Shown in pieces: positions 2-22,100 of a stretch of DNA of 64,000 nt. The position numbers were made by a program, and so were the translations under genes. The notes beneath the pieces are model-generated. The model was not told the DNA's origin and did not search any database. It was given only the letters and a program-made list of their open reading frames with translations. Origin of the DNA: Methanosarcinales archaeon (lineage in GTDB: Bacteria > Omnitrophota > Gorgyraeia > Duberdicusellales > 4484-171); contig JAIWAR010000003.1 of assembly GCA_048634245.1 (NCBI GenBank), positions 2,401-66,400 on the forward strand. Reading direction: 5' to 3'. Every line of letters starts with the position of its first letter. Within the stretch, counting starts at the first letter, position 1.

Positions 2-1100
2 GAAACAGTATTTAGGAATAGAGAAGAGCAGGAAAGAAAGTTAAGGAAGGAGATAGAAAGAGCAAAGGATAGAGGAGAAAATACACAAGGAATGGGAGCG
101 ATGAGTCCGGAAGAAGTGACTCGTTTTGTAAACTTTTTTGAGCGGTTGACAGTACATATGCTGGAGGAGATGCCTAAGAGAGCAGATCTGGTATTTGAGA
201 TGAGTGGCGGACATAGGATAAAGAATGTTTATCGTAATGAAAAATATGACGGGGGGAGTGAAAAATCGGATTTAAGTAAACATACAGGATCAGTTAAAGT
301 AACGGGGATAGTCAATGGCGTAGATATACAAAAGGTATTAGAGAAATACAATTTATCAAATATGCCTGCAGACACTGATGAAGAGATAAATGAGTTTAGG
401 GTGGCTTTAGCAGGGGCGATACGAGAAGAAGTGGGCGAAATAGATATCGGGTTGTTGATACCGTATTACCAGGAATATGGTAACGCGCCGCATGTGTTAA
501 GGACAATGATTGCCGGGTATGAGGGGTACTTTTCGGATAAACGAGCAGTGGTCATTGCGGTAGGGACAAAGGCCGCGGGTGAAGCCGGAGAACGAGCGCG
601 AGTATTATTAGAGGAAGAAGCGAATAAGCATGAGGGGAATCTTAATATTATAATTTTACACCTTGATGAAATAGAGAGAGGAAAAGGCCGCGGTTTGAGA
701 TGGGCATTTACGATTGCGCACGCCTTAAGGGCAGAGGCGATATTGCATTTAGACGCGGATTTGTATACAGAGATTAAAGGTGTATCGAGCAGAGAAAAAG
801 CAATTAATTGGAAAGAGTGCCCGGAAGAAAAATTCATGAGTTATATGGAATCACATCGTTTGCGTGGATTAAGCCCCTACTGGATAAAAGCGATGGTGGA
901 ACCGGTACTAGAGAGAGAAGTTGGATTAGTACTTCCGTACTATGTGCGGCCGATATTTGACGGAATGATTACTAAGTTTCTTATGTACATATGGGCTGTA
1001 GTATTTTATAAAGTAAATATAGAGCAGATAATCGCCGGAGATTTTTGTTTGTCAGGTAAGTTCGTGGATATGCTGTTAGAAGATGAGAAATTGTGGAAGG
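2..1100 (+). other. Domain: C-terminal part of a diverged GT-A glycosyltransferase, glucosyl-3-phosphoglycerate synthase (GT81)-like paralog (copy 0, continues upstream of window)
   Basis: Peptide ...IERGKGRGLRWAFTIAHALRAEAILHLDADLY... (nt ~680-770) matches the GpgS core PGGKGxALxxGLxxAxGDIVVFLDADL including the DxD. Downstream layout RY.R....L.Y....Q..G.F..S parallels copies at 2180 and 13690. Confidence 0.4.
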
Positions 1101-4100
1101 ATGAGAATTTCAATACGTTTGGATATGACAATGTTGTGACATCGTTGGCGATAGTGAAAGATTTTAAGATTATTCAAGCAGCGTTGGGAGAGAAATTGCA
1201 TAATGATAGTTCACGGATAAAAGAAAGAGTTATAAATGATAAGCAAATAGAAGAGCTAAAGAATGCTCGCGTTATTTTTGAAAAGAAAACAGGAGAATTT
1301 GAATTTGTGATAAACGATCAAACCGCAATAAAAGCGCGGATACGGGCGTATGTGTATGAACACCCTGAATCGAGTTTGCAGGATATAATATTATTAGATG
1401 AGATGGAGATAGATGGCAGGATTGTAAGGATAAAAGAAGACAATTTACGTCTTATGTTTAAGGAAGTATTCGCAGGAGCACATAGGTTTATGATAGAGAG
1501 GTGCGATGAGCTGGAAGCATTGATGGAAAGCGAGGTAACTAATATAGAGGTAACCGGACCGGAGTATCTACAGCGGATTTTACCGGTACAGATACAGTTA
1601 GATTATGAGAAGGTATTAGCAAAGTTTATAGAAGGGTATAATCTTTATTCGGGGATAATTAGTAATATAGTAAGTAGTAATAAAGAGACTTTTTCAGATA
1701 CGATAAAAGAATTAGTGAAAATAGCCGAAGAGGATCCCGATAATTTTGAATTTACAAATGAGTTATATGCGAAGATATTTCTTAAAGTAGCCGTGAGTAA
1801 ACAGAAAGGTATAGGTGATATAGATTTGGTGTTAGCGATGGAAGTATTATGGAGAGGAAGAGTCGCTTCATTTATAAAGAGAATAAATAAATACGCTAAG
1901 GAAAAGACGGAAGAGTATGGGCCGGAGGAAGCATATGAAATGGCGTATAAGTATTCACAGCATTTAGTAAGCGAACAATTGAGGATGGTAGAGCTGATAT
2001 TAGCACGGTATGCAGAGAGGTATAGAAACGCATTGCGAGAAAATGGGAATAACAAGGCTGCGGTGCGGGGTGATAAGCAATATGATGGTGGCAAGGCAGC
2101 TGAAGACGCAATACGCGAAGAGAAAAGACAAACGCGTTCTGTCTACAATGAGGCAATGAAAACGCCGTTCAAAAAGGCTGAAATTATAGGCAAGGTTGAT
2201 ATTGTTATTGGCATACCCTTTTTTGATGAAGTAGAGACAGTAGGTAATGTATTTAAGAAAGTAGTGGAGGACTTGAAAGAACATCACTCTGACAAGGAGT
2301 CTGCGATAATCTGCGCCGGCGGCCCTTCAGGCAAGCCTGCTCAGAAAGCTTTAAAAATTCTTGAAGGTATTACCCTGCCTTCCAATATAAAAAGGATAGC
2401 CTTTATTCTGCCTATTAGAGGTAAGGGCATAGGAGGAATGAGGCCGGTTATGGAACTAGCTGATATGTTGGGCGCTGAGGCCTGCACTTTCATTGACGCT
2501 GATGAGCGCAAGGTAACTAAAGAATGGGTTTCTCTTATGGTTAACCCCATATTAAATCAGGGATATGACTTTATTTCTTCCCGTTATGCTCGTTATAAAC
2601 ACTCCGCCACAATTACCAATCATCTAGCCTATCTTTTGATTGGAGCAATTTATGGACTAATAGTACGCCAGCCTATTGGCGGAGAATTTGCCCTTTCAAG
2701 AAGATTGATAAAATTATATCTTAAAAATCCTGAAGTCTGGTTTACCAATGTAGGTACTTACGGGGTAGATAATTGGCTTACTACAACAGCTATTGTTAAT
2801 AAGGTGAAAATGGGCGAGGTTGATTTAGGCATTAAAGCGCATAGTTTTAGTGCTTTTCCTAAACGGGGGGGGATGTTTATCCAGGTAACCAGTGAAATAT
2901 TTAGCCAGGTAAAGAAAAATGCGCCTTTCTGGAAAAAAGTAGAAAAGGTTAAGCCTATTGATACTGTTGGCCCGTTGAAGGGGGAAACACCTGAATCTGT
3001 ACCTCAGAAGTACAGGGAGTGGCTTGGCAAGTTTAAGGATAATTTCGAGAAAAATCTTCCTACATACAAAGAGATATTGCCGAGAGATATAGTTAATGAA
3101 TTAAAAATTCTGGTTTATACTGAAAATGAAAACTTTGAACTTAAAGCTTCAGTTTGGGCAAAGATTGTTTATACTTTTCTTCTTCATTATAGTTTTAGTG
3201 AGGAGCCTATAGGAGAAAAATTCTGGGACGCGCTGGTTGCCATATGGCAGGCGCGGGTAGGTTCTTTTATCAGAGAGACCGAAAAAATGAGCCATGAGGA
3301 AGCAGGAGAAGTTATCTATAAACAACTTGAAGAGTTTATCAGCGCAAGAGAGGGATTTGTTAATGAATGGAGAGAGAAAGAAGCAGGTTTTGACGGCGGG
3401 ACAAAAAGTAACGACATAGCGAAACGTCTTTGTAAAATATTCGCAAGTGAGAGTAAGTGGTATAAGTATATTGAAAAAAGTAAAAACAAAAAAGGCATCA
3501 CTGATGATAGGGAAGTAGTTTTGGGAGTAATACCGAAAGGACATTTTGAAGAAACAGACGAATATGACGATATTATTGCTTTGCATGGCGGAACCGGCGG
3601 CGCGTCCTTTGGAAAGTCGGTAGGGTTTTCGGAAGTAGCTAAATTTCTCAGCCAGAAACTTTCAACTGGTTTAGCTATTTCGCCTCACGATACCGGAGGA
3701 GCTTCCCGCAAACTTCAGGATAGAGTAGCCGGAGTTTTAGGCTATATACCTTCACCGGGAGATACGATGAATATTCTTTCCGGATTCAGCTCTTTTTACA
3801 AAAAGCTTATTTTGGGGACAAGGTTTAAAGATGATATTCAGCCTCATGAACTTTTTGTTGATAAAATAACCGAATTGCTTCAGAAGGTAGTTAATATGTC
3901 CGAGGATAAAGTTTTAGTTAAGAGTAATAAATTAACATGTGATTATCTGGAGTTTTACGAAAACAACTATATTATTCACTACAATAAGAATACTCGTATT
4001 TTAACTTTTACGAATACAAAACATAAACCTAACGAAACCAAGAAAGATATAGTAAAGGTAAATTTAAGTACAATAGAGGAATCCAAAGAAATAGAATTCG

Positions 4101-7100
4101 ATGGATTTAGATTTACTTTATCTAATAAAAATAGTGATTTTATATTAGAGGCGCCCTTTTTATTGGATGAAGACTGGGCTTATTTCTCCGCTGCTTTGAT
4201 TAGACTGGCTGGTGTTGTAGATGGATTTAAGAAGAAGTATAACCTTAGTAATCTTTTAGCCGGGGGAAGCATACAGAATTTTCTAATTCTTGGAGCAATG
4301 CTTGATACAGACGCATATAATACTAATAGAAAAACCGTAGATATAGATAAGTATAAAAAAGGCATTTCCAACCTTTGTTATATACTTTGCATAAAAGATG
4401 TTTCTCTTAAAGTGTTTCTTTCTACCTTTGAGGAAGGCACCCTCTACGTTAGGCTTAAAGATATGACTATTATAAAAGGAGGAGTTAACTATCAGCTAAA
4501 AGACGAAAACAAAGATGAGTTAGCAGAGGCAGGTGTAAAAATAGAACACTCGGAAATGGGCGAGTTTGATTTAGATATAAACGGCAGGTCTCTTAAAATA
4601 ATACAAGATATAAACGGAGTGGTTTATCGTAATTATCCAGATAAGGAAGACAGTAAAACTCAGGTTATTTTAACTCTGGGCAATAAGTTTTCTTTAGATT
4701 ATTCTTCGACAAAAGTGAATATAGAAAAAGATACAGAAGGAAATATAAAGATTACTTACGTGCAGAAGGGGAAAAAGCCGTTGACAGAAGATATGGTGAT
4801 AGGAAAAGAGTTTCCCATTATCTTCCAGTCTGAGTTTGAAGACTTAGGAGAAGGTGATAAACATTCTATAGCCAAAGTAATGCTTAATAAGAACAGTGAA
4901 ATTATAGTTACTCTGGATACACGGGGAGAAGGTGTTACCTTTTATCTAGGCGGGGAGGAAGTTGGCATAAAAGGAAGATTGGTTATTGAGCAAACTTGGA
5001 TTACAGAGAGTTTGCACTCAACGGGAATACAAAAGCTCGGTTTTATTAATAAAGCTTCTCCCAGTTATTATGATGAGCTGATTAGAAGGATAGAGAACAC
5101 CAACCTCTTAATTATGGGCCCGGGCAGTTTTTATACCAGCCTTCTCTCTATTCTTTTAATCCCGGAGATAGTTGAAGCATTAAAAAAGAGAATCAAGGAG
5201 GGAAAACCCAATCTTTATATATTTAACCCCTATATGGATAATGAAACTGTAGGTTTAAATAAGATTTCTGAAATAATAGATGCATTTGAGAGGTTTATTC
5301 CAGGAGTAAAGTTCAGCGATTTGTTTAATTACGTATTAATAAATGAATTAGAGGAAATTGAAAAAGATGCCCGTAATGGTGACGATGATGCTTTAAGGGC
5401 GTTAGAGCTTATGGATGAAATGGAGAGTAAACTTCAAGAATCAAAAGGCCGGCAAACTCGGACAGCAGGAGATTTTGCCAAGTTTTCAAAATATTCCCGA
5501 GGGGCTATTAAGTTTGATAAAGAAGCATTGTCTCTTTTATATCGGGATAATGTTAAAATATTTACCATAAAGGCGGCATTGGGCAAAAGAGCAGTACGTA
5601 AGGCTGGTAAAGCAGGAATAGAGGAAACTGTAAGATATGGAGAAGAAAATATTGCCAGAGTGATTGATGAAATTTACTGGATAGAAGAAAGGCTGAAGAA
5701 AGCGCCTAGATATACCAAAGTTCTTAGTGAATATTTTGAAGGTAATGAACCCGAATTAATACGCGAGATCGAGCGTTATCTAAATCAGGTAAAGGGAATG
5801 AGTCATCTTAATGTGATTTCGCAGTTCTTTGATGAATTAGAAGGTAAAAATAGGCAGCAGGGCGGTGATTTAGCAGGAGAATTCTTTGACACGCAGTTAA
5901 TCATATCTAACTTTAAACATACATTAGTCAAATATGATTCCTCTCGGCTTACAGATAAATTACAAAAATCTCTAAACAGTTTTTTAAAGAATAAACACAT
6001 GGTAGTTATTACCGGGCTTAAAATAGAAGATATGGAGAAGTCTTTTATTAACAGAATAGATGAAAATGTACGTAAAAACTTGATTATTGCTGAATGTTCA
6101 GGGGCAATTGTTTGGTATTTTAACAAAAAGGGGGAAAAAGAATTACTTTATTCGATGTGGGATGAAATAAGCGATAAAACTGATTTAAGGATAAAGTGGA
6201 ATAAGATTATAGATGATGCTATGTTTGAATTTAATCTGGATAAAAAATCGGAAGATGCAAAAGGAAATATACTGGATGAAATTACAAAAGTTGATAGAGG
6301 CGCCCAGATTACTTTGGAATTTGCTGAGAGAACTCACCTGAGTTTTGAGTTAAGTTTTGATATTAATAAAAAATTAGACTCTAATTTACCTATGATAGGC
6401 AAAGACGGAGATATGAGAACTCCTGTATGTAGGTATTTTAATACAAAATTTAAACAAAAGAAATTACCTTTAGTTGCTATTAAAGGCGGCACAGGCGCAA
6501 TTAATATAATACTTAAGAAGGTAGAAAACAAGGGGGATATAGTAAGGACAATATTACGTCTGGCTAAAGTTAAAGGAATAATACCTGAAGATAATTTAGA
6601 TGAAGACATTCTTGTTACCGGCAAAGATAATCGTGAGGTTATAGAAGAATTCCCATTGGCACATTGGCTGATGTTTAGGCAGGAAGAAGTACCTTTGGAA
6701 TTAAAAGACAGAATCGACAGGTGGCAGGGCGCTTACGGTGTAAAAGGAGTAGAAGAGTTCTTTGAAAGATTATTAGAAGACAAAAACGGCAATAAAGACG
6801 GCGGCAGCCTTTCCAAACCTGTATCGGAAGGGGTTGTGTTTGACGGGGGGAAGAATAGGAAAGATTTAGATATAAAAAAGCATCTTAGGAAGATATTCGA
6901 AGGCAATTTAGATGAAAATATCGAAAAAAGCGCAAAGAAAAAAGGTATTACCAAAGAAGAAGTAATCTCCGAAAAGACGCCGCCGGAACGAGAAATAAGA
7001 AAACCGGGGCAACCTGATGATATTGTGGCTTTGTATGGCGGTACAGGGGGAAGATTCTTTGGAGAATCGTTGAGATTCTCGGAATTAGTTAATTTTCTTA

Positions 7101-10100
7101 AACAGAAACTTCATGTTCTTTTCGCTATCTCACCTCATGATGACGGGGGCGCTTCCCGCAAGCTTCAAGAAATGGTAGAAAAAGTTTTAGGGTATATACC
7201 TTCACCAGGCGACACAATGAATATTCTTTCAGGGTCCAGCTCTTTTTATAAGAAACTTATCTTAGGAACAAGATTCGCAAAAGACTTAGAAGACCATGAG
7301 ACCTTTACCGATAAGATAACTGAATTTCTTAAAAAGGTAGTGGATATGACTCAGGATAAAGTCTTGGTTGAAGATAGTAAGCTGGTATACACCGGACAGT
7401 TAGAGTTATATGAAACTGTTTATGGCATCGATTATGACGGGGAAAAATGCGTTTTATATTTTGCTGACATAAAAAAGCCGGAAGTAAAGATAGAAGTAGA
7501 ATTAAATAAAATAGAAGAATCTAAAGTAATAAAGCTTGATGGTTTTGATTTTAAATTATCCAGGAAGAATAAGGATAAGTTTGTTTTAGAGGCGCCTTTT
7601 GAATTAGATGAGGATTGGCTGTATTTTTCTGCCGGTTTAATTAGGATAGCGGATATTGTAGATAAGTTTAAAGAGAAATACAATTTAAAGAATTTTCTGG
7701 CCGGAGGAAGTGTCCAGAATTTCATTCTTCTCGGGGCTATGCTTGAAACCGGAGCGTATAGCACCCAAAGAAAAATTGTAAATATAGGTGAATACAAAGA
7801 GGGCATAGTGAACCTTTGCTGTATATTGGGCGTGGAAAATCTTACTGTAGAGGTACTTCTTTCTACTTTTGAACCCGGCACCCTCTACGTTAAATTGAGT
7901 GATATGACTATTATAAAAGACGACACTAATTATCTCTTGAGAGAAGATAACAGGGAGAAGTTAGAAGAAGCAGGCGTAGATATAAAGTGCATTGATACCG
8001 GAAAGTTTGAGTTAGTGGTAAACGGTAAACGGTTTAAAATAAGCGAAAATATAGAGGGAAAGGTTTATCGCCATTATTTTGATAAAAAAGACAGCAAGAC
8101 CCAAGTTGTTATGCCGCTTCAGAAAGAGTTTTCTTTTGAGTATGCTTCGGTAAAGGTGAACATAGAAGAAGATTCCCACGGCAGAATAAAGATTATTTAT
8201 AAGCAAAAAGGTAAAAAAGCTGAGGAAAGAGTTATGAATGCGGGAAAAGAATATTTAGCTGCTTTACCTTCAGAATGGGGCAAATTAGGAGAAAAAGATA
8301 AATATTCTATTGCCAGGGTGATGCTTACTAAAAAGAAAGATATTGTGGTTACCTTGGATACGCGGGGATTAGGCGTTATTCTTTATTTAGGCGCTGAGGC
8401 GCTGAGTATAAAGGGGAGATTGGTTATTGAGCAAACATGGATTACAGAAAGTATTCATTCCGCAAAGATACAGGAACTTGGTTTTATTAATAATGCCGCT
8501 CCCCGGCATTACGAGGAGTTGGTTGAAAGAATAAAGAAAGCCAAATTTTTAAGTATGGGGCCGGGCAGTATTTATACTAGTCTTCTTCCTATTCTTTTAA
8601 TTCCGGAGATAATTGAGGCCTTAGAAGAAAGAACTAAAAAACACAAACCCAGCATTTTTATATTCAATCCTTATATGGATAACGAAACAATAGGTTTAGA
8701 TAAGGTTTCTAAAATAATGGAGGCATTTGAAAGGTTTACAGGTAAAAAATTCAGTTCTTTATTTAACTTTGTAGCTGTGAATGATTTAGAAGAGATTAAG
8801 AAAGAAGCGCAGAAAGGCAGGGAAAAGAGCAGGAAGTTATTAGGGCTTATGAACGAGACGAAAAGTAAGCTTAAAGCATTAAAAGGAGAGGGAAAACAGG
8901 TTCGTACAGGAGCGGATTTTGCTAAATTTTCTAAATATTCTTGTGGCCCCATTGAGTTTGATGAAAAAGCCTTAGCGTCTTTGTCTGCAGGCGGAGTCGA
9001 GATACTTACTATAAAAGCAGAGCTGGGTGAAAGGCAGGTACGCAAGAAAGGAAAAGCAGGGACAGAAGAGGCAGTAACATATGAAGGACGCGATATAGCT
9101 AAAATAATCGATGAGATATATGGGAAAGAGAAGGGAGTAAGCCGGCTAATAGCTAAAGACGCAATCCCCCCCTACGCTAAAGCTTCGGAGGGCAGGCGCG
9201 ATATGGAGGATGTACGACGAATAACTGACGGCGGCAAGCGTTTTAATGAGGATGATGTTAAGAAGTATTATAAGCGGGGGCTTGGCCAGTTGAATGACGG
9301 TAAGCTTGAGCAGGCACTGAGTTCTTTTTATAAGGCTTTGAGTGTATATAATTTAATATTGAGCGTGGATGCTTCTAAGAGGGAAGATGAAGGATTAAAA
9401 GAACTGTGTTCAAAGAGTGAACAGAAGATTAGTTCTATTGAAAGGGGCGGGAAAAATGGATTGGAAGGATTTTTTCTTCATCGGGTCAATTCTCAAAATG
9501 GCCGGCTGTTTAAGTCGGATAAACCGGTTAACTGGATAAACGGGCATAAAAAAGGTATTTGGCATGCTACCGCGCAGGTTCTTGTTATAGATCAATCCGG
9601 CCGTATGCTAATTCAGGTTCGGGAGGATATGGAAAGAAAAAAAGACCTTGCGGCAAGCGGGCATCTAAAGCCGAATGAGTCATACGAAAAGCAGGCTCTT
9701 CGGGTGATTGATGAGACTCTCTTTTCACCAAAGGAAGACTCTTTACGGCCGTTGCTTGAAGGGCGAAAGGTAGGCCGCAGGGATTTTGAAGGTGAGTCAG
9801 GGTGTGATGATTCTAACACTTTCTATTCAGCTTCAAAAGAAGAGCGGAACCTCGAGTATTGCCGGTTTTTTCTATATATCCTTAGTGCTGAAGAATTGAG
9901 GGAAATTGAAGAGGAAATTAGAAGTGAGAGTGACTCAATGTTTAGATTTCGTCCCCTTGAGCAGTCATTAATTGAATGTATTCAAACTCGACCCGAACAG
10001 TTTGTCAGCACAATTCTTCAATTATTCTGCAGTGATTACAATATAGAGCTCGTCAAAATGAGGATTTTGGAGGAACTATTTAGAATTCTTAAAGAAATAA

Positions 10101-13100
10101 GAAATAATCCGGAGTCTGCAAAAACAGAATATGTTAATAGTATTAGAAAATTTGCGGAAAAAGTAATTGAGTGGAGAAAAGACTGGCGAGATTATGGCAC
10201 AACAGATGAGAAATATAAGACAGAAGAGATGATAGAGTCAGAAGATAAGGATGCTTTTGGCAGGCGTCGCGCCCGTGCCATTTCCGAATTAAAAATTTTA
10301 CATCGGCAATGTTTAATACTTGTAACCTGGCAAGAACTCCTTGGTTATTACCAAAACGAAGAAAAACAGTTAAAGTCAGAAAAGTCGTTTTTTTGCGTAG
10401 ATAAGGCTATTGAGCTTATGGGCAGGGTATATGGAAATGAGGCAAAAACAGTTCAGGGGAGAGCGTTATTAAGTATTTTCTTAAGAAAGGGAGTAAAATT
10501 AGAGAATAAACCCGATGGTACTTATTGTTTTAAGAAGGATGGTAAGGTCTTAGAAGGGGTAGCTATTAATGATAAAGACGAACTTGAAATTAGCCCGAGA
10601 ATAAGGAAAGGAATCGATACCATCCGTAAGGGCGCAATTGCCGCGGATATGGATTTGACCACTGCATTTCGCGATGAGAATATAGATACAGAGATGCTTA
10701 ACCATATTAGCCGGCTTATGATGTTAGGAATACGCTACGGAATAATTTCAGCAAATGAATTTGAAAAACAATTTACGCGTTCTGTGACTGAATTTATCCC
10801 TCTAAGGTTATTATATAAGTGTTTTGTTATTTACGCGAGCGGAGCTGGTGTGAAGGCAAAATTTGATCAAGAAGGTAATATTTTACCGGATGAAAAATAC
10901 ACACGGAGTTTCACAGAGGCTCAAGTAGAAGAATTAAACACTTTTTTAACTAAACTTACTTATATCTGGGAAGAAGTAGTAAGGGTTTTGCGGGAGAATG
11001 TAGAAAAAGATGAAGACAAATTGACATTAAATGATATTGAAATGATAGAAAGAAAAATTAAGGATAGATTTAAGAAGAAAGAAATTAAGGATGCCAATAA
11101 GGTTATTTTAGATAAATACCAGGTAAATATCGTAGAGATATTAAACCAAAATATAACGAAGATCCTCCGAGATATAAGTGAAATTTTAAATTCTTCACCT
11201 GAATTTGAAGAAGGAAAGGATGCCAGAAAAGAAGAAAAGAGGTTAAAGTATAAGAAAAAGCTTGAGGCACAATTAGATCTTGACTATTCCGAAGAAAAAT
11301 TAAAAGATACAGGAAATTGGCCGTTTATAGACTTAAGAACAAACATAGGTAAAGATAAGTTAATCCAAATTACTATAAAGCCTATATATCCTGCCGAAAA
11401 ACATATTGCCTCAAAAGAAAATTCCGCAAGAGAAATATTGGGTAACTTAATTATAGAACCGGTGGTTAAGAAAATCAATTCTTTACTTTTAGAAATTCAG
11501 CCGGGACTAGTCCCTATAGAAATCACTTTAGGCGGTTCAACTAGTATCGATTTCGCGAGAAAGGACATTAATAAGAGCATTGCGGCAGAAGATTTGATAA
11601 GAGGGGCAAGACTTGAGAAAGAACGCGATCTTCTTCTTGCCATTGGTGATGAATTTATTTTTACAGGAGTTGATTTCGCATTTCTTAAGACTCCGAAAAT
11701 AACTGTTATTTCGGTTGAAGACACAAAGGACAATAAAGAACGTCAGTATAAAAAAGCCGATAAAAAGAAAATTAAAGCAAAGTGTTTCTGGAGCGGGAAT
11801 TATCCTGAGCTTGGCGGGGTCGGAATTAGCGCTACCTTAGGGATTTATTTAATGCTCGAAGAGTTATACGCCGAAGAAATCTTTCGTTTATTTGAAGGCG
11901 ATAAGGACATTGTTCCTGCAATTCGCAGGTTAGGGCAAAGATTGGAAAAAGGACACTCACAACTAAATACCGCCGACGGCGGACAAATCGAAACAAAACC
12001 CTTAGAGCAGTTAAGCAGTTACAACAAACATAAAGAAAACTTCAAAATTGAATTCGGAACTAGCGGATGGAGAGGAGTAATCGGAAAAGATTTTGATATA
12101 CATAATGTAAGACGAGTAGCCCAGGCAGTAGCCGAGTATTACAATAACTATATAAAACAAGGGATACTGCTGATAGGGTTTGACCCCAGAAAAGGCAACA
12201 GGGAGTATGCTATGGAAATAGCGGCAATAATGGCAGGGAACGGAATACCGGTAAGGATAATCTTAGCAGAACCCACCCCTACCCCGGTACTAGCCTATTT
12301 AACCAATTCCAATCCAAAAATAAGCGGAGTAATCAATTTAACAGCTTCACATAATCCGTACGAAGATGCGGGGCTCAAATTCTCACCATACCACGGCGGA
12401 GCAGCCAACAAAAAAATAACCGGCCAAATAGCAAATTACGCGAATACAGCCGCGGAATATAAAAGCATGAATTATGAAACCGCGGTATCGGACGGGATAA
12501 TAGAAGAATATGAATTAGAAAAAGCCATAGATATATATGCAAATAAATACATAATACCAAAACTAAAAGAAATAGGTGCTTGGGATACAATTGTAACCTA
12601 CATAAAGAAAGACAAAGAATTCAAGCTTATCTTAGACCCGATGCAGGGAACAGCAGTAAAATACATGGAAGCAATCTATGACCAAATGAGTAAGGAAGCA
12701 GGAAGAAAATTCTATGAAATGATACATACAAACAATAAAGATCCGGAATTTAAAGAAGTAAAAGGAGCACCAAATCCGACAGAATCAGAAAATATTCAGC
12801 CATTATTGAATATGCTGGTTGGAAATAAAAATGTATTCAAATTGGCAACTGATGGAGATGCCGATAGATTCGGAATAATAGATTTTGGAGGAAAAGAATT
12901 GTCAGCCAATGAAATAATGGCAATGCTGGTTTACTTCTTGCATGATAAAGGATTCAAAGGAGCGGTAGGCAAGACAGTAGCTACATCAAACTTTGTAAAT
13001 GCTATAGCAGAATATCTAGGAATAGAGTTGATAGAAGAGCCGGTAGGGTTTAAATGGTTTGTAGCCAGAATAATGGATGAAGGGAAGAAATTCATCGTAG

Positions 13101-16100
13101 CCGGAGAAGAGTCGGCTCATGTAGGTGTAGGGCCATTCATGGAATCATGGGATGACGGGATAGCCATAGGATTAATGTGCTTATGGATGGTTGCGGATAC
13201 AGGAAAGAGCCTTACAGAGTACAGAGAAGAAATAGAAGCAATAATTGGCAAAAAATTCTATTACAAGAGAGGAAAAGTAGATTTAACAGAATCTTTGAAG
13301 AAAAAGACTGAAAACTTTATAGATAATGTAAGAGAAGAGCAGAAAAAGAAAATTCCTTTAGACAAGATGACAGTAATTAAAGCTTTAAAGAATCTCGGGC
13401 TAACACAAAAAACGGTATCAGTAATAACATCAGACGGATTAAAAGTAGTATTTGAGAGTGGAGATTGGTTTTGCATAAGGTTATCAGGTACACAGTTTGT
13501 GTCCAGGTTGTATACGGAAGTAACTGTGATAGAAAGAGAAAAAGACTTAGTATCTCTTGGAAATCAATTGTTTGAAGCTATTGATCGGCAGGGCGTACAA
13601 CGGGTAACTGACGGCGGGTTGTTAGAAGTAAATAAAGAGAAAAGACAAATCCGTTCTACCTACAATGAAGCAATGAAAGCGCCGTTCAAAAAGGCTGAAA
13701 TTATAGGCAGGGCTGACATTGTTGTTGGTATACCCTTCTTTGATGAAGTAAAGACAGTAGGTAATGTATTTAAGAAAGTAATGGAGGACCTGAAAAAACA
13801 TCACCATGGTAAGAAGTCTGTGATAATTTGCGCCGGCGGCCCTGCAGGCAAGCCTGCTCAGGAGGCTTTAGAAATTCTTGAAGGTATTACTCTGCCTTCT
13901 AATATAAAAAGGATAGCCTTTATTCTGCCTATCAGAGGTAAGGGCATAGGAGGAATGAGGCCGGTTATGGAATTAGCTGATATGTTGGGTGCTGAGGCCT
14001 GCACTTTCATTGACGCTGATGAGCGCAAGGTAACTGATGAATGGGTTTCTCTTATGGTTAATCCCATATTAAATCAGGGATATGATTATATTGCTTCTCG
14101 TTATGCCCGTTATAAACACGCCGCCACAATTACCAACCATTTAGCCTATCCTTTGATTGCAGCAATTTATGGAAAAGCAGTACGCCAGCCTATTGGCGGA
14201 GAATTTGCCTTTTCAAAAAGATTGATGAAATTATATCTCAAAAACCCAAAGGTCTGGTTTACCAATGTGGGTACCTACGGAGTAGATAACTGGCTTACTA
14301 CAAAAGCTATTGTTAATAAGATGAAAATGGGCGAGGTTGATTTAGGCGTTAAAGCGCATAGTTTTAGTGCTTTTCCTAAGCGGAAGGGGATGTTTATCCA
14401 GGTAACTGGTGAAGTATTTAGCCAGGTAAGGGAAAATGAGCGTTTCTGGGAAAAAGTAGAAAAGGTTAAGCCTATTGATATTGTCGGTCTATTGAGGGGG
14501 GAAACACCTGAATCTGTACCTCAGGACTACAGGGAGTGGCTTGGCGAGTTTAAGGATAATTTCGAGAAAAATCTTCCTGCATACAAAAAAATATTGCCGC
14601 AAGACGTAGTTAACAAATTAAAAATCCTGGCCTATACTAAAGATGAAGAGTTTGAACTTAAAGCTTCAGCCTGGGCAAAGATTGTTTATATTTTTCTTCT
14701 CCATTATAACTTTAATGCGGAGCCTATAGGGGAAGAATTCTGGGATGCGCTGGTTGCCATATGGCAGGCGCGGGTAGGTTCTTTCATCAGAGAGACTGAA
14801 AAAATGAGCCACGAGGAAGCAGGAAAGGTTATCTATAAACAACTTGAAGAGTTTATAGAAGCAAGAAGAGACTTTGTTGATAAATGGAGAGAGAAAGAAA
14901 ATCTTGATGGTGGAGTATCTTCAGAGTCAGATAGTGTTGAATTCGAAAGAGATTTTATATCTTTGAAAAGGAATTTTATAAAAAAATCGCAAAAGAAAAT
15001 TAAAACAGTAAAGAAGGAATTAGTAACTTATAAGCAAAAATCAAAAGAAACAGGTATTGGAGTAATGTGGTTCTCGACAAATTACGAATTTTACAAAAAA
15101 CACTTTAAAGAAGTGTCTTCTGAATTGAAAATGATTAAGAAAAGAGAGTTACCCGATCATGGGAAGAGAGTATATTTAATTGCTAAAGAATTTATAGAGG
15201 AGTTAGGGCTAAATCCTTTATCAGTAAAGGAGTTAACAGAATTTTTAAATAATCATGCTCAAAGACTTGAGCTTAATTTAGCAGAGATAGAGAGTTTCCC
15301 TACAATGTTAAAGCTATCTATACTTGAGGTATTTATTACCAAGTGCGATGCTCAAATTATCAAAGATATGGCAATCAGTGAAGCTGACAGCTTATTTAAA
15401 AATACAATCGATAATACGAAATTTATAAACATCATTGATTTCCCTTCTTTTATAGGTGATATGAGTATAATTGACAGTGTTTTGAAACAAGATTCGACTT
15501 ATTTGTATATGGATGCTGAAACACAGGATAATTATAGAAGGACTGTTTACGATATATCTCAAAAAGCAAAGGTTTCTGAACAAACGGTTTCCCGTAAAGC
15601 GTTAGAATTGTCTTTGTCGTATAAAATAAGAGCGCCGGATAAAATTGATACATATTATTATGATTTTAGACCGGGGTATATCGGATATTACCTTATAGAT
15701 AAAGGGAGGGAAGAATTAGAAACTTTATTAAGCATTACTCCTACTATAATCGAATCGGCTAAAAATTGGATTTATGAACATCGCAGCTATCTTTATTTAG
15801 GGGCTATTTTTAGTATAGCAATTCTTGAAACAGCGGCAGTATTATTTTATTTGGCGCTACTCGATATTCACCCTGTTACGATAGCCTTGGTATCTTTGGC
15901 ATTTTTCTTTGTTTTCAATGATGTAGCCGCGCATCTTATGAATAATTTAATGAATAAATTTGCAAAAGTTCGAAAACTTCCCAAGATGGACTTCTGGAAT
16001 GGCGTGCCGGAAGAATACAAGACATTAATAATTTTTAATGTTCTTCTAATAAGTAAGCAAAATGCTCAGGAGTGTATTACGGCTGTTGAAAAGACATTTT

Positions 16101-19100
16101 TGGATAATGTTGATAGATATATATCTTTAGGGATTTTAGGAGACTTTCCCGAATCCGCTGAGGCGCATTTATCGGTAGAAAATAAAGAAATAATGGCTTA
16201 TGTTGAAGAAAGTATAAGCTCATTGAATGATAAATATCAATCCAAACTAGGGTATTCTCCTTTTTATCTGTTTATTCGTAAAAGAACATGGAATGAAAAA
16301 TTCAAAAAATGGATGGGTTGGGAAAGAAAAAGGGGAGGGCTTATAGAGTTGAATCGCTGGCTTAGGAATCCTCTTGCGAAAACTAATTTTATAAAGATTA
16401 TCGGAGACAAGAAAACTATAAGAGGGGCCAAATATGTAATTACTTTGGATGAGGATATTGAGGTGCCAAAAACAATAGCTAAAAGATTCGTTGAGATTAT
16501 GGCCCATCCTTTAAATAGGCCGGTGATTGACCCCGATAAAAATATCGTAGCGCAAGGATATGGGATGGTATATCCATGGTTGGGCATAATACCGGCTTTT
16601 CGTGAACATAAATCTTCTAGGACATTATATAGACAAGTTGACCTATGGCAGAGAGGACAAAGGGATATAGGAGTATATAAGTATGCTTTTCCTGATATCC
16701 ACCAGTATATTTTTGATGAGGGAACATTTACAGGAAAAGGGATTTATGATGTAGAGGTATTTCAGTCTATCTTGGATAATCGGTTTCCGGCTGACCGTCT
16801 TTTAAGCCACGATCAAATCGAAAGTTTTTATATGAGGTCTGCTTTGGCAACAGATATGGTATTGTTAGAGGGAACTGTAGGGGATGCTTTAAATGACTAT
16901 AAACGCAAAGAGCGCTGGACAAGGGGTGATTGGCAGGATGTCTGTTGGATGTTTGGAAAAATCCCTGCGAGAATTGGGGACAAATTGTTTGCAGAATATA
17001 ACCCGGTATCTTTTTATAACAAATGGAAAATATTCGATAAGGTGCGAAGGACTTTTATCCCTCAGAGCCTCCTGTTTCTTTTAATTTTTGGATGGTTTAC
17101 GCCGCAAATACCGGTTATAGCCTGGACTTTATTTGTTTCTCTCCTTGCTGTATTCAATAGAATACCCATTACCCTTAATCCTATAGCCTGGAAACATTTA
17201 ATCCCAAGAATTTTCTTTTTTGCTGCATTCGATATGAGTTTGCTTGTATACTCTGCATACCAAAATATGAGTGTTATGAAAACTATCTTTGGGAAAAAGC
17301 TGATTACCAATCCTAACTTAGATTGGGTTTCTGCTTCCGAAGCAGGAAAGTACAAAGAAACAAAAACATTGAAGGGGATTTTGAATTGGGCGAAAAGGCC
17401 GCTTATATGCGTATGGTTAATGAATATAGCTTTATATATATTTAATCCTCAGGCCTTGGTTGTTTCCCTTCCTATTTTAATCTTCTGGTCAATCACACCT
17501 TTTATGCTTTATAGATTGAGCGGCCCGGAATTTCCCAGCTGGCTTTCCTTATATAACAAATTATGGTATTTGGGTTGGCTAATGCGGCCCAAATGGGCAG
17601 AGGATAAACTGAAGAGAACATTACTTAGTGCTGACGATATAGAAGACGGTCAAAAAGATTACCTGCGAAATGTAGCATTTGATACCTGGAGTTGGTTTGA
17701 GAGATATGTTAATGAGAAAGAGAATTGGTTGCCGCCGGATAATACAATATATAATTCTGCGGATGAAATTGCCGATTATACTTCACCGACGAGTATTGGG
17801 TTATATCTGGTATCCGTTATTTCTGCTTATGATTTAGGGTTTATTTCTAAAGATGAGGCTGTGAGGCGCATAGAAAATACTTTGAATACAGTGCAGAAGT
17901 TAGAAAAATGGCATGGCCACCTTTTTAATTATTATAATACTCGTACTCTTGTCGTGACGAGACGGTATATTTCTGTAGTAGATAGTGGAAACTTTCTTGC
18001 CAGTTTAATTGTTGTGGTTCAGTTTTTTCCTGAGAATAAAATGTCTAAAATAGCTTCGGCTTTATTAGAAGAAATGAATTTTGCCCCTTTATATGATTTC
18101 GAAAAAGGGTTTTTCTATACCGGATATGACCAAGATGTTCAACATTTAACTAATAGTTACGACACATCAAGGCCTCATTTTACGGCTCTAGAGGAAGAAA
18201 TATCCCAGAAGTTTACTATTTCTTACTATGATTTATTAGCGAGTGAAGCGCGGCTGGGCAGTTTTACAGCTATAGCTAAGGGAGATATACCTGATATTCA
18301 TTGGTTTAACCTAAAAAGGCCTGTTAGTGATGGAGCAAATAAGGTTATCTTAAGCTGGGGTGGAACGGCATTTGAGTTTTTAATGCCGCAACTTTTTATG
18401 AAAGAAAAAGAAATTGCTCCCTACTGGCTGGGATTAAATAACTTAAGAGCAGTTGAGGCTCAGATAGAGTATGCAAAGAAGAATACATTACCTGCTTGGG
18501 GTATTTCCGAGTCCGCTTATCCTGTAGTTACTCCCGGTGGCAGATATTATTATAAAGCCTTTGGAACGCCTAGCCTGGGGATTAAATATCTCACTTCTGA
18601 TGAAAAAGCGAAAAACATAATCGCTCCTTATGCTTCAATATTAGGTGTGGAATTTGCACCTTTGCAAGTTGTCAGCAATCTTATTAATTTAGAAGGGGTA
18701 TCGGCGAGAGGCGAATACGGATTTTATGATTCTGTTGATTTAGATGAAGGTGAGGTGAGTATATCGTATATGTCCCATCATCAGGGGATGAGTTTGATTG
18801 CCTTAAATAATTATTTAAATAAGGGGATTGTAAGAGAAAGATTTCATTCTCATCCTTTAATTAGTAATGTCGAAAATCTATTAGCTGAGGATTCGCTATT
18901 GGAAGATAAATTTAATATGCTTAATTTAAAGAGAAATAGAATATTTGATCAAAATACTTTTCCTTCCGAAGCAAACCTTTTAAGCAATAGAGCCTATTCC
19001 TTATGGGTTACGAATAAGGGCAACGGGGCCAGTAAAATGAGTAAAGAGCTATGCGGAGACCCTAACTTTTTTGTTACAAGGTTTAGAGATGATCCCCTAA

Positions 19101-22100
19101 AAGACTGGGGCAAATATTTTTATATTAAAGATGAAGATAGCCAAAAGGTTTGGTCTTTAGGGTTCGATCCTTTAAAAGAAAACCCCGACAGTTATGAAGT
19201 TATCCATAATTTTCATTCCACGCAGATTATGCATAAAAAGGAAGGAATAAAGATAGAAGCAAAACTTTTTGTGCCCAACGAAGGCAGTTTAGAAATCTGG
19301 CAGATAACTTTGCAGAATGAGGGGAAGGGAGAACGAAATTTAAGCGTTACAAGTTATCTGGAGTGGGTATTAAATAATATAGAGTTGGATATTAATCATC
19401 CTTTTTACAATAGACTATTTATTAAGACTACATATGACCCTTCTTTAAAAGCTATTTTTGCAGAGCATGAAAAAACAAATGTTTTGGGATTTCATTCTGT
19501 AAATATTGAACCTTTTGCTTTCGAAACTTCCCGGCGCGATTTTATCGGTAGAGGAAGAAACCTTGATTCTCCCCAAGCTTTGGCTAAAGGCCTGTCAAAT
19601 TCCCAAGGATATACTTTAGATGCCATAGGTTCTTTAAAGGTGGATATAAAACTCTTAGCGTTTGAGTCTAAGACGATCATTTTTACGATAGGCGCGGTTA
19701 ATGACAGGGAGGAAGCAAAGCATTTAATTACAAAATATACAGATTCCTCAAATGCCTATAAAGCCTTAAGAGATAATTCTTTTGCAATCTGGAAACATCT
19801 TTACAATTTAGGATTAAGTTATAGGGAAAGAGAAATAATAGCGTCTCTTGCTTCAAAATTAATTTATAGAGACGTAAATTTACAAGGTGATATTCAGGCC
19901 AGGATATCTAATCGAGGGGGCCAACCAGAGTTATGGAAGTATGAAATTTCAGGTGATTGGCCGCTTATCTTATTTAAAATTTCCTCGCTTGATAGAATAA
20001 AAGATGCAATGATCCTTATTAAAGGGCAGGGGATATTAAAGGATAAACTCTTTACGACCGAGCTATTGATTTTAAATACTTGTAAAAATGATAAAGAAAG
20101 AAATGAAATTAATTTTATTTTGGATACCTTACTTCCCCAGGGAGTATTTATTTTAAATGAAATAGACATTCCGCAAGAGGATTTATGGCTTCTGGAATCC
20201 CGGGCAAGAGTAGTCATTAATAAATCATTAGAAGCTTCTTTTGAAGGTACTAAAGACGGAGGTAAGGCATCTAGCGGTTATTTTACAGAAGATGGAAAAG
20301 AGTTTATTATCACGACACCTTTGACACCTCGCCCCTGGGCACATATCTTAGCCAATCCTGAATATGGGACTTTAGTTACTAACTCAGGGGCGGGATATTC
20401 CTGGTTTATGAATGCTCAGCAGAATAGGATAACGCCTTTTGCTCCAGACGGCGTAACGGATGATTCCAGAAAGATACTTTACATACGAGATTTAGATACT
20501 AATGAGATTTTTTCTCCCACATATAATCCGTTTAAAGATTCTGACAATCTCTTGATAAGATACGGGTTAGGATATGCTGTTTTTGAGAAAGTCAAAAACA
20601 ATATATCTATTCAGCTGACAGTCTTTGTGCCGCAGGATGAGCCTCTTGAGATTTGGATTTTGAAGTTGAAAAATTTAGGGAAAGAGAGAAAGAGGCTGGC
20701 CGTTACTAATTATTTTGAGCTGGTTTTAGGAGATACTCCTGAGAATACCAGATATAAAGTTTTATCTTATTATGATAAGACTTTGGAGGCGTTGCTGTTT
20801 AGCAACAAAACAGGTAATTTTAAAGATGCGATAGCATTTTCTTCCCTAAATTTAAATCCGGTTAGTTTTGAGACTGATAGGCAGAGATTTATAGGAGTAA
20901 ATAGGGATTTAAATAATCCCGAAAGTATTGAAAAGGGGGAGTTATCCGGATCTCAGGGGATTAATGTCGAGAGTATCGCTAGTCTTTTGGGAGAAATAGA
21001 AATAGAACCTTTTGAGGAAAAGGTAGTTGTATTTACCTTAGGCGAAGCGCAAAGTTTTGATGAGGCAGCAGCACTTATAGGAAAATATAAAGATACGGTT
21101 AAGGCTGAGGAATCTTTAGAAAATACAAAGTCTTACTGGTTGAATCTTCTTGAATCATTCAAAGTTGATACTCCGGATAGAGAATTAAATATTATGGTGA
21201 ATTACTGGCTGAAGTATCAATCAATTGCATGCCATTTATGGGCACGAACCGGATATTATCAGTCAGGGGGAGCAATAGGGTTTAGGGACCAGCTACAAAC
21301 CAGTTTGATTGGTCTTTATACTGATTCTGAAATAACCCGAAGACAAATAATTCTACATAGCGCGCATCAGTTTGAAGAAGGGGATGTTCAGCACTGGTGG
21401 CATCCGGAGAATAATTTGGGCGCACGCACCCTTATTTCCGACAATCTACTTTGGCTGGCTTATGTCTTATATCATTACACAACAGCCACGGGTGATTGGT
21501 CTATTTTGGATATTGAAGTTCCTTATTTAAAAGGAAGATTATTGGAAGAAGGAAAAGAAGGTGATGTATTTATCCCTGAAATCTCTGATAGAAAGGATAC
21601 GATTTACAAACATGCCTTAAAGGCTATTGATTATGCACTTAATAGATTTGGGCCGCATGGTTTACCTTTAATCGGCGCGGGCGACTGGAATGATGGTTTT
21701 AGTAATGTTGGGATGAAAGGACAAGGTGAAAGCGTCTGGCTTGCCTTTTTCTTATATGATGTATTAGTAAAATTTTCTAAAATAGTTGAGGCAATGGAAG
21801 GAAAAGAAAGAGAAGAATATTATTTAATGAGAGCCGAATCACTCAGAAAGGCAGTTGAGGAATATTGTTGGGATGGAGATTGGTACGTAAGAATTTTTGA
21901 TGATGATGGAAATGTTATTGGCAGTAAGGAAAGTGATGAGTGGAAAATAGATTTGATCCCTCAAGCGTGGGGAGTGATTTCAGGAGCTGCGGATAAAAAG
22001 AGGGTAATAAAAGCGATGGAATCAGTGGGGAAATATCTTATTAAGGGCAATTTAGTACTTTTAAGCACTCCGCCTTTTGAGTATACAAATTTGAATCCGG

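Follow-up and report, generated by a model that had tools for sequence, protein, structure and literature searches.

Ggs-like glycosyltransferase units in a giant Omnitrophota-type multi-enzyme gene with a recurrent DGG motif

Introduction

Glucosylglycerate synthase (Ggs) forms its product from ADP-glucose and D-glycerate in a single step; it reportedly uses D-glycerate and not 3-phosphoglycerate, so that no phosphatase is needed. To our knowledge, the characterised relatives, namely Ggs, mannosylglycerate synthase (MGS, CAZy family GT78), glucosyl-3-phosphoglycerate synthase (GpgS, GT81) and mannosyl-3-phosphoglycerate synthase (MpgS), have either glycerate or 3-phosphoglycerate as their acceptor. 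The Ggs of Persephonella marina (EC 2.4.1.268) is a free-standing, two-domain enzyme of 417 amino acids (aa), and a precedent for glycosyl-glycerate enzymes fused in one chain is provided by the bifunctional MpgS/MPGP fusion of NCBIfam model NF011072, which has two domains and about 694 aa in total. Here we describe three Ggs-like glycosyltransferase (GT) units in nucleotides (nt) 2-14,905 (the region under study) of a 64,000-nt stretch of contig JAIWAR010000003.1 (assembly GCA_048634245.1, positions 2,401 to 66,400 of the forward strand), the whole of which is referred to as the window. In contrast to the Persephonella enzyme, these units are parts of a single chain that exceeds 21,000 aa and contains no GpgS-type unit, and neither the MpgS nor the MPGP type of the NF011072 fusion is found in the window.

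Very long single open reading frames (ORFs) have been published from Omnitrophota (West-Roberts et al., 2023, 10.1101/2023.11.21.568195; a 2026 preprint, 10.64898/2026.06.07.730766, on ‘multi-enzyme metabolic clusters’), and these giants share with the window PGM/PMM, HAD, radical SAM, methyltransferase, HEAT and AAA_5 domains, glycoside hydrolases and transmembrane (TM) segments. Both surveys are Pfam-based and list no Ggs-, GpgS- or MGS-type transferases. Proteins of this kind are thus already known, and the new detail is the presence of Ggs-like modules that Pfam does not detect. A preliminary description of this DNA, made from the sequence, had regarded the fusion of so many enzymes in one chain as undescribed; given the published giants and the NF011072 fusion, this is true only in part.

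The giant open reading frame

Frame 2 of the forward strand contains no stop codon in the 64,000-nt window, giving 21,333 codons with both ends open, and the other two forward frames contain 2,093 and 2,343 stops. The GC content is about 37% and the GC skew is positive throughout. Pfam domains of at least 18 distinct types are found in frame 2 along the whole window, and the nearest relatives of the encoded protein (77-87% identity) are fragments from metagenome-assembled genomes (MAGs) of Candidatus Omnitrophota. The region under study therefore lies inside one giant gene: the window is the interior of a giant Omnitrophota-type multi-enzyme gene that runs off both window ends, comprising a single ORF of more than 10,000 codons, many unrelated enzyme domains, TM segments and Omnitrophota relatives. 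Nucleotides 2-14,905 are read here, with moderate confidence, as encoding nine units, the first that the window shows of a giant protein built as a string of enzyme-sized units.

The glycosyltransferase units

The three GT units are as follows:

Unit A, nt 257-2083 (aa 86-694), + strand: Ggs-like GT unit with a GT-A core and a helical C-terminal domain; divergent, with insertions of about 33 and 70 aa
Unit B, nt 2093-3391 (aa 698-1130), + strand: Ggs-like GT unit, 34% identical to Persephonella Ggs; AlphaFold (AF2) model and fold match
Unit C, nt 13619-14905 (aa 4540-4968), + strand: Ggs-like GT unit, recent duplicate of B

The preliminary description had recognised three paralogous GT-A domains of about 240 aa, the first beginning at nt 2. 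The three copies are real, but unit A begins at nt 257 and its GT-A core at about nt 425, and each copy is a two-domain unit (GT-A plus helical C-terminal domain) of about 430-610 aa, with lengths of 433 aa for B and 429 aa for C. In a self-comparison of the frame 2 translation, aa 704-1163 are 70-87% identical to aa 4543-4999 over the aligned segments, and aa 142-409 of unit A are 24-31% identical to B and C. Units B and C share 80% aa and 86% nt identity, with a synonymous divergence (dS) of 0.25 overall and 0.20 in the GT-A core, and a ratio of nonsynonymous to synonymous divergence (dN/dS) of 0.38 in the GT-A core and 0.60 in the helical half. By these measures, B and C are recent duplicates under constraint. 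A tandem-repeat or low-complexity origin of the copies was ruled out by the size of the units (430-610 aa) and their spacing of up to 11 kb.

Inspection of the catalytic residues found the GKG lysine motif, the DxD motif (as DAD) and the downstream metal-binding histidine in all three units (A: GKG aa 227-229, DAD 251-253, His400; B: GKG aa 807-809, DAD 832-834, His947; C: DAD aa 4671-4673, His4786). The GKG...DAD core that had been noted before is thus common to all copies, and the accompanying IGGEF motif is found in B and C, as QPIGGEF, but not in A, which has QIIAGDF. Of 44 positions that are conserved in at least 95% of 40 free-standing Ggs-like members, 42 are kept in B and 42 in C, compared with 33 in A, where the 11 changes are concentrated in the TITN loop (to MITK) and the RQPIGG loop (to EQIIAG).

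The family to which these units belong is not apparent from direct searches. Nothing above threshold was found in a Pfam scan of the GT regions (MGS_GT, PF21969, scored 18.3 bits against a cut-off of 27 in B and had no match in A or C), and the best single-sequence match in the Protein Data Bank (PDB) was GpgS (3ckj) at E 0.7; homology was recovered only with profiles built from homologues. A database search with unit B returned 254 homologues, nearly all of them free-standing proteins of about 415 aa that cover 85-90% of the unit (E about 1e-66), some of which are labelled ‘glucosylglycerate synthase’ by JGI; the closest matches (47-48% identity) are Candidatus Omnitrophica fragments. A search seeded with an Aquificota member, whose matches overlap the unit B list, returned ‘glucosylglycerate synthase Ggs [Persephonella]’ (P0170) at 77% identity. 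This protein aligns with unit B at 34% identity over 406 of its 417 aa (BLASTP, E 2e-72) and with the core of unit A at 31% identity (E 4e-31; helical part, E 1e-4). Units B and C and Persephonella Ggs have the same two-domain layout and the conserved GKG, DxD, TITN, RQPIGG and K-x-H residues in common, and unit A, used as a tblastn query, matches all 83 free-standing loci examined.

Compared with the PDB, a 43-member family profile matched mycobacterial GpgS at E 3.7e-12 in the GT-A core only, Rhodothermus MGS at E 7e-9 with an alignment reaching into the C-terminal domain, and Rubrobacter MpgS at E 8e-5. The AF2 model of unit B (pLDDT 91) gave Rhodothermus marinus MGS (2bo4, 2y4k) as its top Foldseek match, at E 1e-15, a target-normalised TM-score of 0.75-0.79 and 403-411 columns covering both domains, although the sequence identity is only about 17%. 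GpgS (4y6n, 7pdo) shares the retaining GT-A core with DxD, metal-binding histidine and GKG, but aligns over this core alone (about 265 columns, E 1e-8, 19-25% identity). The best fold match is thus MGS and not GpgS.

The only NCBIfam match of the GT units is GpgS PRK13915 (NF010496; E 1e-10 to 2e-12), with scores of 40.7 bits for B and 46.7 bits for C against an equivalog cut-off of 262, and no match for A; NF040724 (GpgS_Meth, of the Methanococcoides/Persephonella type) has no match in A, B or C. In a neighbour-joining tree without bootstrap (230 core columns), B and C fall inside the Ggs-like family next to the Omnitrophota fragments and A forms a long basal branch, with both GpgS types (the GpgS_Meth type and the GpgS of M. 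tuberculosis and M. hassiacum) outside the clade; the core identity of the units to the GpgS groups is 16-25%. A close match to GpgS, as proposed in the preliminary description, is therefore not borne out. As judged by sequence comparison, the GT units are Ggs-type and not GpgS, because they score below the GpgS cut-offs, fall in a separate clade, show full-length homology to Ggs and keep the conserved residues of that family; their membership of the glycosyl-glycerate synthase superfamily is likewise supported at this level.

The HAD-IIB and phosphohexomutase units

Two further units with a possible bearing on sugar phosphates lie between B and C:

HAD-IIB-containing unit, nt 9236-11974 (aa 3079-3991), + strand: HAD fold at about nt 10630-11720, preceded by about 460 N-terminal aa
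Alpha-D-phosphohexomutase (PGM/PMM) unit, nt 11984-13609 (aa 3995-4536), + strand: PF02878, PF02879, PF02880 and PF00408 above cut-offs

The HAD-IIB assignment, which had been made for a degenerate domain at 11.3-11.7 kb, is supported by Pfam (Hydrolase_3, 29.1 bits against a cut-off of 20.9), with a span that is longer than proposed and with motifs that are not degenerate. The four HAD motifs of the window, DMDLT (I), SANE (II), GGSTSID...K (III) and GDE (IV), are invariant in an alignment of 12 homologues (DMDxT, S(A/G)NE, GG.TSID...K, [GD]DE). An AlphaFold model (pLDDT 90.3) matched only HAD-IIB structures, and the structural comparison confirmed a Rossmannoid core with a type-IIB cap. An exhaustive HMMER search with the unit found 30 relatives only, nearly all within other giant-protein fragments. 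An assignment of the unit as the cognate phosphatase of a two-step pathway, GpgP or MpgP (TIGR01486, HAD-SF-IIB-MPGP), is not supported: the MPGP models of NCBIfam had no match to it at E<=1, the single sequence gave a non-significant result against the MpgP/GpgP family, and a profile of 12 sequences gave a non-significant E of 0.15 in a profile-profile comparison with the MPGP alignment. The predicted fold is equally compatible with a sugar-phosphate phosphatase and a sugar-phosphate mutase. In most other giants (P0125-P0134), a NUDIX-box domain (GHLxxGExxxxAAxRxxxEExG) precedes the HAD module; no NUDIX domain was detected in the corresponding 460 or so aa of the window (nt 9236-10630).

The PGM/PMM domain was correctly placed at 12.0-13.6 kb in the preliminary description, with all four Pfam domains spanning nt 12047-13529. 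The functional loops TASHNP, DGDADR, GEESAH and RLSGTQ are all present, and the PDB matches are Thermus PMM/PGM structures (1tuo, E 1.6e-40; 2z0f, E 3.9e-34). Every cut-off of the NCBIfam equivalogs was missed, so a preference for glucose, mannose or glucosamine phosphates is not assigned.

Free-standing members of the Ggs-like family

Outside the giant genes, the Ggs-like family is found at more than 590 loci in GTDB species representatives, in Desulfobacterota, Nitrospirota, Planctomycetota, Aminicenantes, Aquificota and other phyla. Neighbourhoods were counted at 83 free-standing loci (L001-L083), where the neighbours are a GpgS-type gene (25 loci), an MPGP-family phosphatase (18), GlgA, which lies directly beside the Ggs-like gene (12), a MOFRL glycerate kinase (8) and a GalT-like gene (5). 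The neighbouring GpgS genes score 335-348 bits on NF040724, and the neighbouring MPGP-family HAD phosphatases 213-228 bits on TIGR01486. The loci of the free-standing members are thus glycosyl-glycerate gene clusters, in which GpgS, where present, is a gene separate from the Ggs-like one. In the Persephonella-type locus L081, a homologue 77% identical to P0170 directly adjoins a GpgS gene, and in Nitrosophilus alvini the Ggs-like gene is clustered with GpgS and an MPGP-family phosphatase. At another locus (L001), two Ggs-like paralogues flank a mechanosensitive channel gene.

Proposed function and alternatives

A glycosyl-glycerate function is plausible for these units, in the form of a one-step, Ggs-type route. 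The analysis establishes the homology and fold of the units, the conservation of their residues, purifying selection and the delimiter pattern described below; donor, acceptor, product and topology are inferred from it, as is the state, fused or released, in which the units would act. Each GT unit has a helical domain after a retaining GT-A domain that carries DxD, a metal-binding histidine and the GKG lysine, in an overall MGS-like arrangement. In units B and C, where essentially all of the family-conserved residues are kept, the most probable reaction is a one-step transfer of hexose from an NDP-hexose donor to D-glycerate or to a small hydroxy-acid closely related to it. With its remodelled acceptor loop, unit A probably either acts on another acceptor or plays no catalytic part. 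The adjacent phosphohexomutase could supply hexose-1-phosphate, and the HAD-IIB unit would be a sugar-phosphate phosphatase or mutase that is not demonstrably a GpgP. TM-like hydrophobic segments are absent before aa 5263, the CofD and HAD core motifs excepted, and occur in clusters from there onward; the whole region under study therefore lies on one side of the membrane. Its product would be soluble and most likely on the cytoplasmic side, because the enzymes use nucleotide-sugars and sugar phosphates.

Several observations weigh against this reading. A search of the window for an NDP-sugar pyrophosphorylase, which the preliminary description had proposed to look for in the rest of the gene, found none at E<=0.001, and neither a limit of E<=1 in the unassigned parts of the region under study nor one of E<=0.1 in ten more unassigned units brought one to light. 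A module recognisable as glycerate-forming was not detected in the window either. In the short Omnitrophota fragments on which module order was compared, the neighbourhood of GT, HAD and PGM is not maintained. The HAD-to-PGM order recurs, in favour of the reading, in one fragment, P0124 (82% identity to the window), which continues from PGM into an unrelated module and has no unit C; unit C is therefore a lineage-specific insertion. In P0121 (80% identity) the HAD module is followed by a SIS domain and in P0123 (87% identity) by another module. From this variable order it follows that the modules are shuffled and that GT-HAD-PGM is no conserved cassette, and their adjacency in the window may reflect this shuffling rather than a pathway. 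Genome-contig scans for an orthologous giant gene, with unit B and with an alignment of the subfamily, yielded free-standing relatives only, none of them above 35% identity, and a metagenome scan with unit B gave no match. Furthermore, the Omnitrophota subfamily has K-A-H-S-F-S-x-F after the metal-binding histidine in place of the K-I-H-D-x-K-D-P of the family (KAHSFS in the window compared with KIH(G/D)xKDP in Persephonella Ggs), so that its acceptor specificity may differ. The tree, as noted, carries no bootstrap values, and the function proposed for the Omnitrophota members rests on sequence and predicted fold. Among the fragments compared, which are 80-87% identical to the window in the HAD unit, P0121 and P0123 share a locus-tag prefix, which places at least two HAD copies in one MAG.

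The altered post-histidine segment, together with the remodelled acceptor loop of unit A, lends some weight to the alternative that the GT units glycosylate an acceptor other than glycerate, be it another small metabolite, the primer from which an intracellular or periplasmic glucan is built, or the giant protein that carries them, and that their neighbours are merely co-resident in a shuffled polyprotein of carbohydrate metabolism. The varying module order among close relatives agrees with this, as do the TM helices with DUF3131/GH144 and the GH94 unit that come next downstream, which are of the beta-1,2-glucan type, and the GlgA genes directly adjoining the free-standing relatives in 12 loci. 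The full-length homology to Ggs, the conserved residues, of which B and C each keep 42 out of 44, and the acceptors of the characterised relatives noted above argue the other way, and we consider this alternative unlikely.

Rather doubtful is the pathway envisaged in the preliminary description, in which the GT units would be of GpgS/MpgS type and act on 3-phosphoglycerate, the HAD unit would be the cognate GpgP/MpgP, and PGM would feed the donor, as a fused two-step route to glucosylglycerate or the entry of methylglucose lipopolysaccharide (MGLP) synthesis. It accounts for mycobacterial GpgS as the best PDB profile match and PRK13915 as the sole NCBIfam match, for the HAD-IIB unit 1 kb upstream of PGM with iPGM and a GAPDH-like unit downstream, and for the frequency of MPGP-family phosphatases beside free-standing relatives. 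However, the PRK13915 scores of 41-47 bits are far from the cut-off of 262, GpgS_Meth has no match, the units form a clade apart from both GpgS types, and the HAD unit fails every MPGP test. Moreover, an MPGP phosphatase is found at 18 loci, and 14 of these also hold a separate, bona fide GpgS gene, which explains the phosphatase without recourse to the Ggs-like gene. Finally, in the HMM alignment, ATITN and KAHSFS of B and C stand opposite the GpgS segments GGRVTE and RAHRNR, whose arginines are not conserved; basic residues of these segments are reported to contact the phosphate group of 3-phosphoglycerate in the M. tuberculosis structures.

A catalytically inactive state of some or all of the GT copies, as structural or regulatory modules or as duplicates in decay, is improbable: the 11 changed positions of unit A and the dN/dS of up to 0.6 in the helical half of B and C could be so read, but DxD, the metal-binding histidine and the GKG lysine are present in all three, dN/dS is below 1 throughout, and 64 kb are free of stops and frameshifts. 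An assembly or annotation artefact, with a chimeric contig or falsely merged genes, has nothing in its favour and can be dismissed almost entirely, since a stop-free frame of 21,333 codons cannot come from chance or from joined normal genes, and the same module types with the same delimiter recur in independent Omnitrophota contigs. The one-step, Ggs-type glycosyl-glycerate route is accordingly the reading retained here, with moderate confidence.

The DGG delimiter

The tripeptide Asp-Gly-Gly (DGG) occurs 44 times in the window, compared with 6.2 expected (shuffled sequences, mean 5.9 and maximum 14; Poisson p 6e-23), and the near-cognate EGG is absent, with 9.1 expected. None of the 44 falls inside a mapped domain span, where 11 were expected; the DGG at aa 2381 is part of the CofD active-site motif HDDGGASRKLQ and not a delimiter, and it is the only copy that does not lie between modules. 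The sites of the region under study are found at nt 248-256 (aa 83-85), 2084-2092, 3392-3400, 6797-6805, 6842-6850, 9227-9235, 11975-11983, 13610-13618 and 14906-14914. The sites lie 5-35 aa from module ends, for example at distances of 24 and 28 aa for PGM, 19 and 15 aa for iPGM, 24 and 35 aa for GH94, and 29-32 and 9-11 aa for units B and C, and they cut the window into 45 units with a median length of 399 aa. With these bounds, units B and C, at 433 and 429 aa, match the free-standing enzyme of 415-417 aa from one end to the other.

All four glycine codons are in use in the motif, and selection therefore acts on the peptide. A codon bias is nevertheless superimposed on it, with Asp encoded by GAC in 26 of the 44 sites (background 22%, p 1.6e-7), a G+C bias in a gene of 37% GC, and with GGC or GGG in 61% of the glycine codons (background 42%); this may reflect a translational pause or a nucleotide-level signal. 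Two known signals were considered as the origin of the motif. An internal Shine-Dalgarno sequence (GGAGG) was ruled out, since GGA is depleted at the first glycine (10 of 44, background 37%) and four codons are used, and the classical double-glycine (C39) leader site offers a loose analogy only, as no hydrophobic pattern is conserved at positions -4, -7 or -12.

In the related Omnitrophota fragments, DGG is found at the junctions even where the downstream module differs, and the divergence of relatives after the same DGG junction indicates that modules have been shuffled at the delimiters. The enrichment of DGG extends to L084, a giant gene that is more distantly related (12 compared with about 1.9 expected). 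Other giant lineages carry SSP/SSSP between modules (P0125, 11 compared with 0.5 expected; P0128, 8 compared with 1.1), and the delimiter motif thus appears to be lineage-specific.

DGG is a candidate processing or hinge site of a polyprotein. A bolder and tentative proposal, to which we give less credence than to the multi-enzyme string itself, is that the 64-kb ORF encodes a bacterial polyprotein whose enzymes, which have genes of their own in other bacteria, are released, or at least mechanically uncoupled, at a dedicated DGG delimiter. For the published giants, West-Roberts et al. (2023; 10.1101/2023.11.21.568195) describe the cleavage points as unknown and take peptidase domains to suggest processing; no delimiter motif is reported there or in the 2026 preprint (10.64898/2026.06.07.730766), and a literature search found no paper linking Omnitrophota to a polyprotein.

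Further modules of the window

The remaining features of the region under study are the following:

End of an upstream unit, nt 2-247, + strand: C-terminal 82 aa, cut by the window edge and ending at the DGG at aa 83
CofD/YvcK-like unit 1, nt 3401-6796 (aa 1134-2265), + strand: Pfam CofD E 1.7e-15; GGTGG, HDTGGASRKLQ, MGPGSFYTSLL
CofD/YvcK-like unit 2, nt 6851-9226 (aa 2284-3075), + strand: Pfam CofD E 4.6e-16; aligns with unit 1

The partial upstream unit has no match in Pfam, NCBIfam or the PDB. The two CofD units, which were not mentioned in the preliminary description, fill 40% of the region under study; they are 59% identical to one another (about 57% over two stretches of some 760 aa in the self-comparison), with a dN/dS of 0.19, and each has a large insertion besides the canonical GGTGG, HD(T/D)GGS and GPGSxYTS motifs. 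Related giants (L084, P0139) carry CofD-like modules in many copies.

In the window as a whole, the Pfam domains of frame 2 are two CofD, Hydrolase_3 (HAD), PGM_PMM I-IV, DUF3131, Glycoamylase (GH144), GH94, HEAT repeats, NTP_transf_2, Gp_dh_C, radical SAM, methyltransferase, iPGM, GH15 and AAA_5. Directly after unit C, nt 14915-22492 hold a unit of 1,780 aa with the first TM-like segments (aa 5263-5837), DUF3131 and a GH144-type Glycoamylase domain, followed by a complete GH94 unit; this combination is reminiscent of machinery for the synthesis or turnover of beta-1,2-glucan. Tandem repeats of about 37-75 aa, 64-80% identical, lie within a HEAT-repeat unit (nt 22655-23542, aa 7552-7847). A TM-rich, DGG-bounded unit at nt 26552-27277 (aa 8851-9092) has a sub-threshold match to Peptidase_A8 (signal peptidase II; E 2.8e-4, 21.5 bits against a cut-off of 25) and is a possible embedded membrane peptidase. 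Further downstream are, in order:

nt 29711-30907: GAPDH-like module, of which the C-domain alone was detected
nt 30932-33967: radical SAM and methyltransferase
nt 36806-38398: iPGM, complete, in agreement with the preliminary description
nt 46022-48709: GH15
nt 61988-62419: AAA_5

Implications

The three complete Ggs-like transferases lie in sequence that is blank in Pfam, and Pfam-based surveys of Omnitrophota giants thus miss whole enzyme classes. The shift from a two-step GpgS/GpgP pathway to a one-step, Ggs-type route also changes which substrates matter for testing. The DGG motif offers a practical rule for dividing giants into units for structure prediction and expression, and makes the question of whether giant bacterial proteins persist as one chain or are cut directly testable, by way of peptide termini at DGG in metaproteomes. 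If the polyprotein proposal were true, the Ggs-like units, PGM, the HAD phosphatase, iPGM, GH94 and GH15 would be translated as one chain, the three Ggs-like units would function like ordinary soluble enzymes, their stoichiometry set by the gene, and DGG, or SSSP in other lineages, would be the cleavage map that is said to be missing in published work. For the biology of these organisms, the Ggs-like units would link the giant proteins to glycosyl-glycerate chemistry, in the form of compatible solutes or glucan primers, and not only to the degradation of prey walls.

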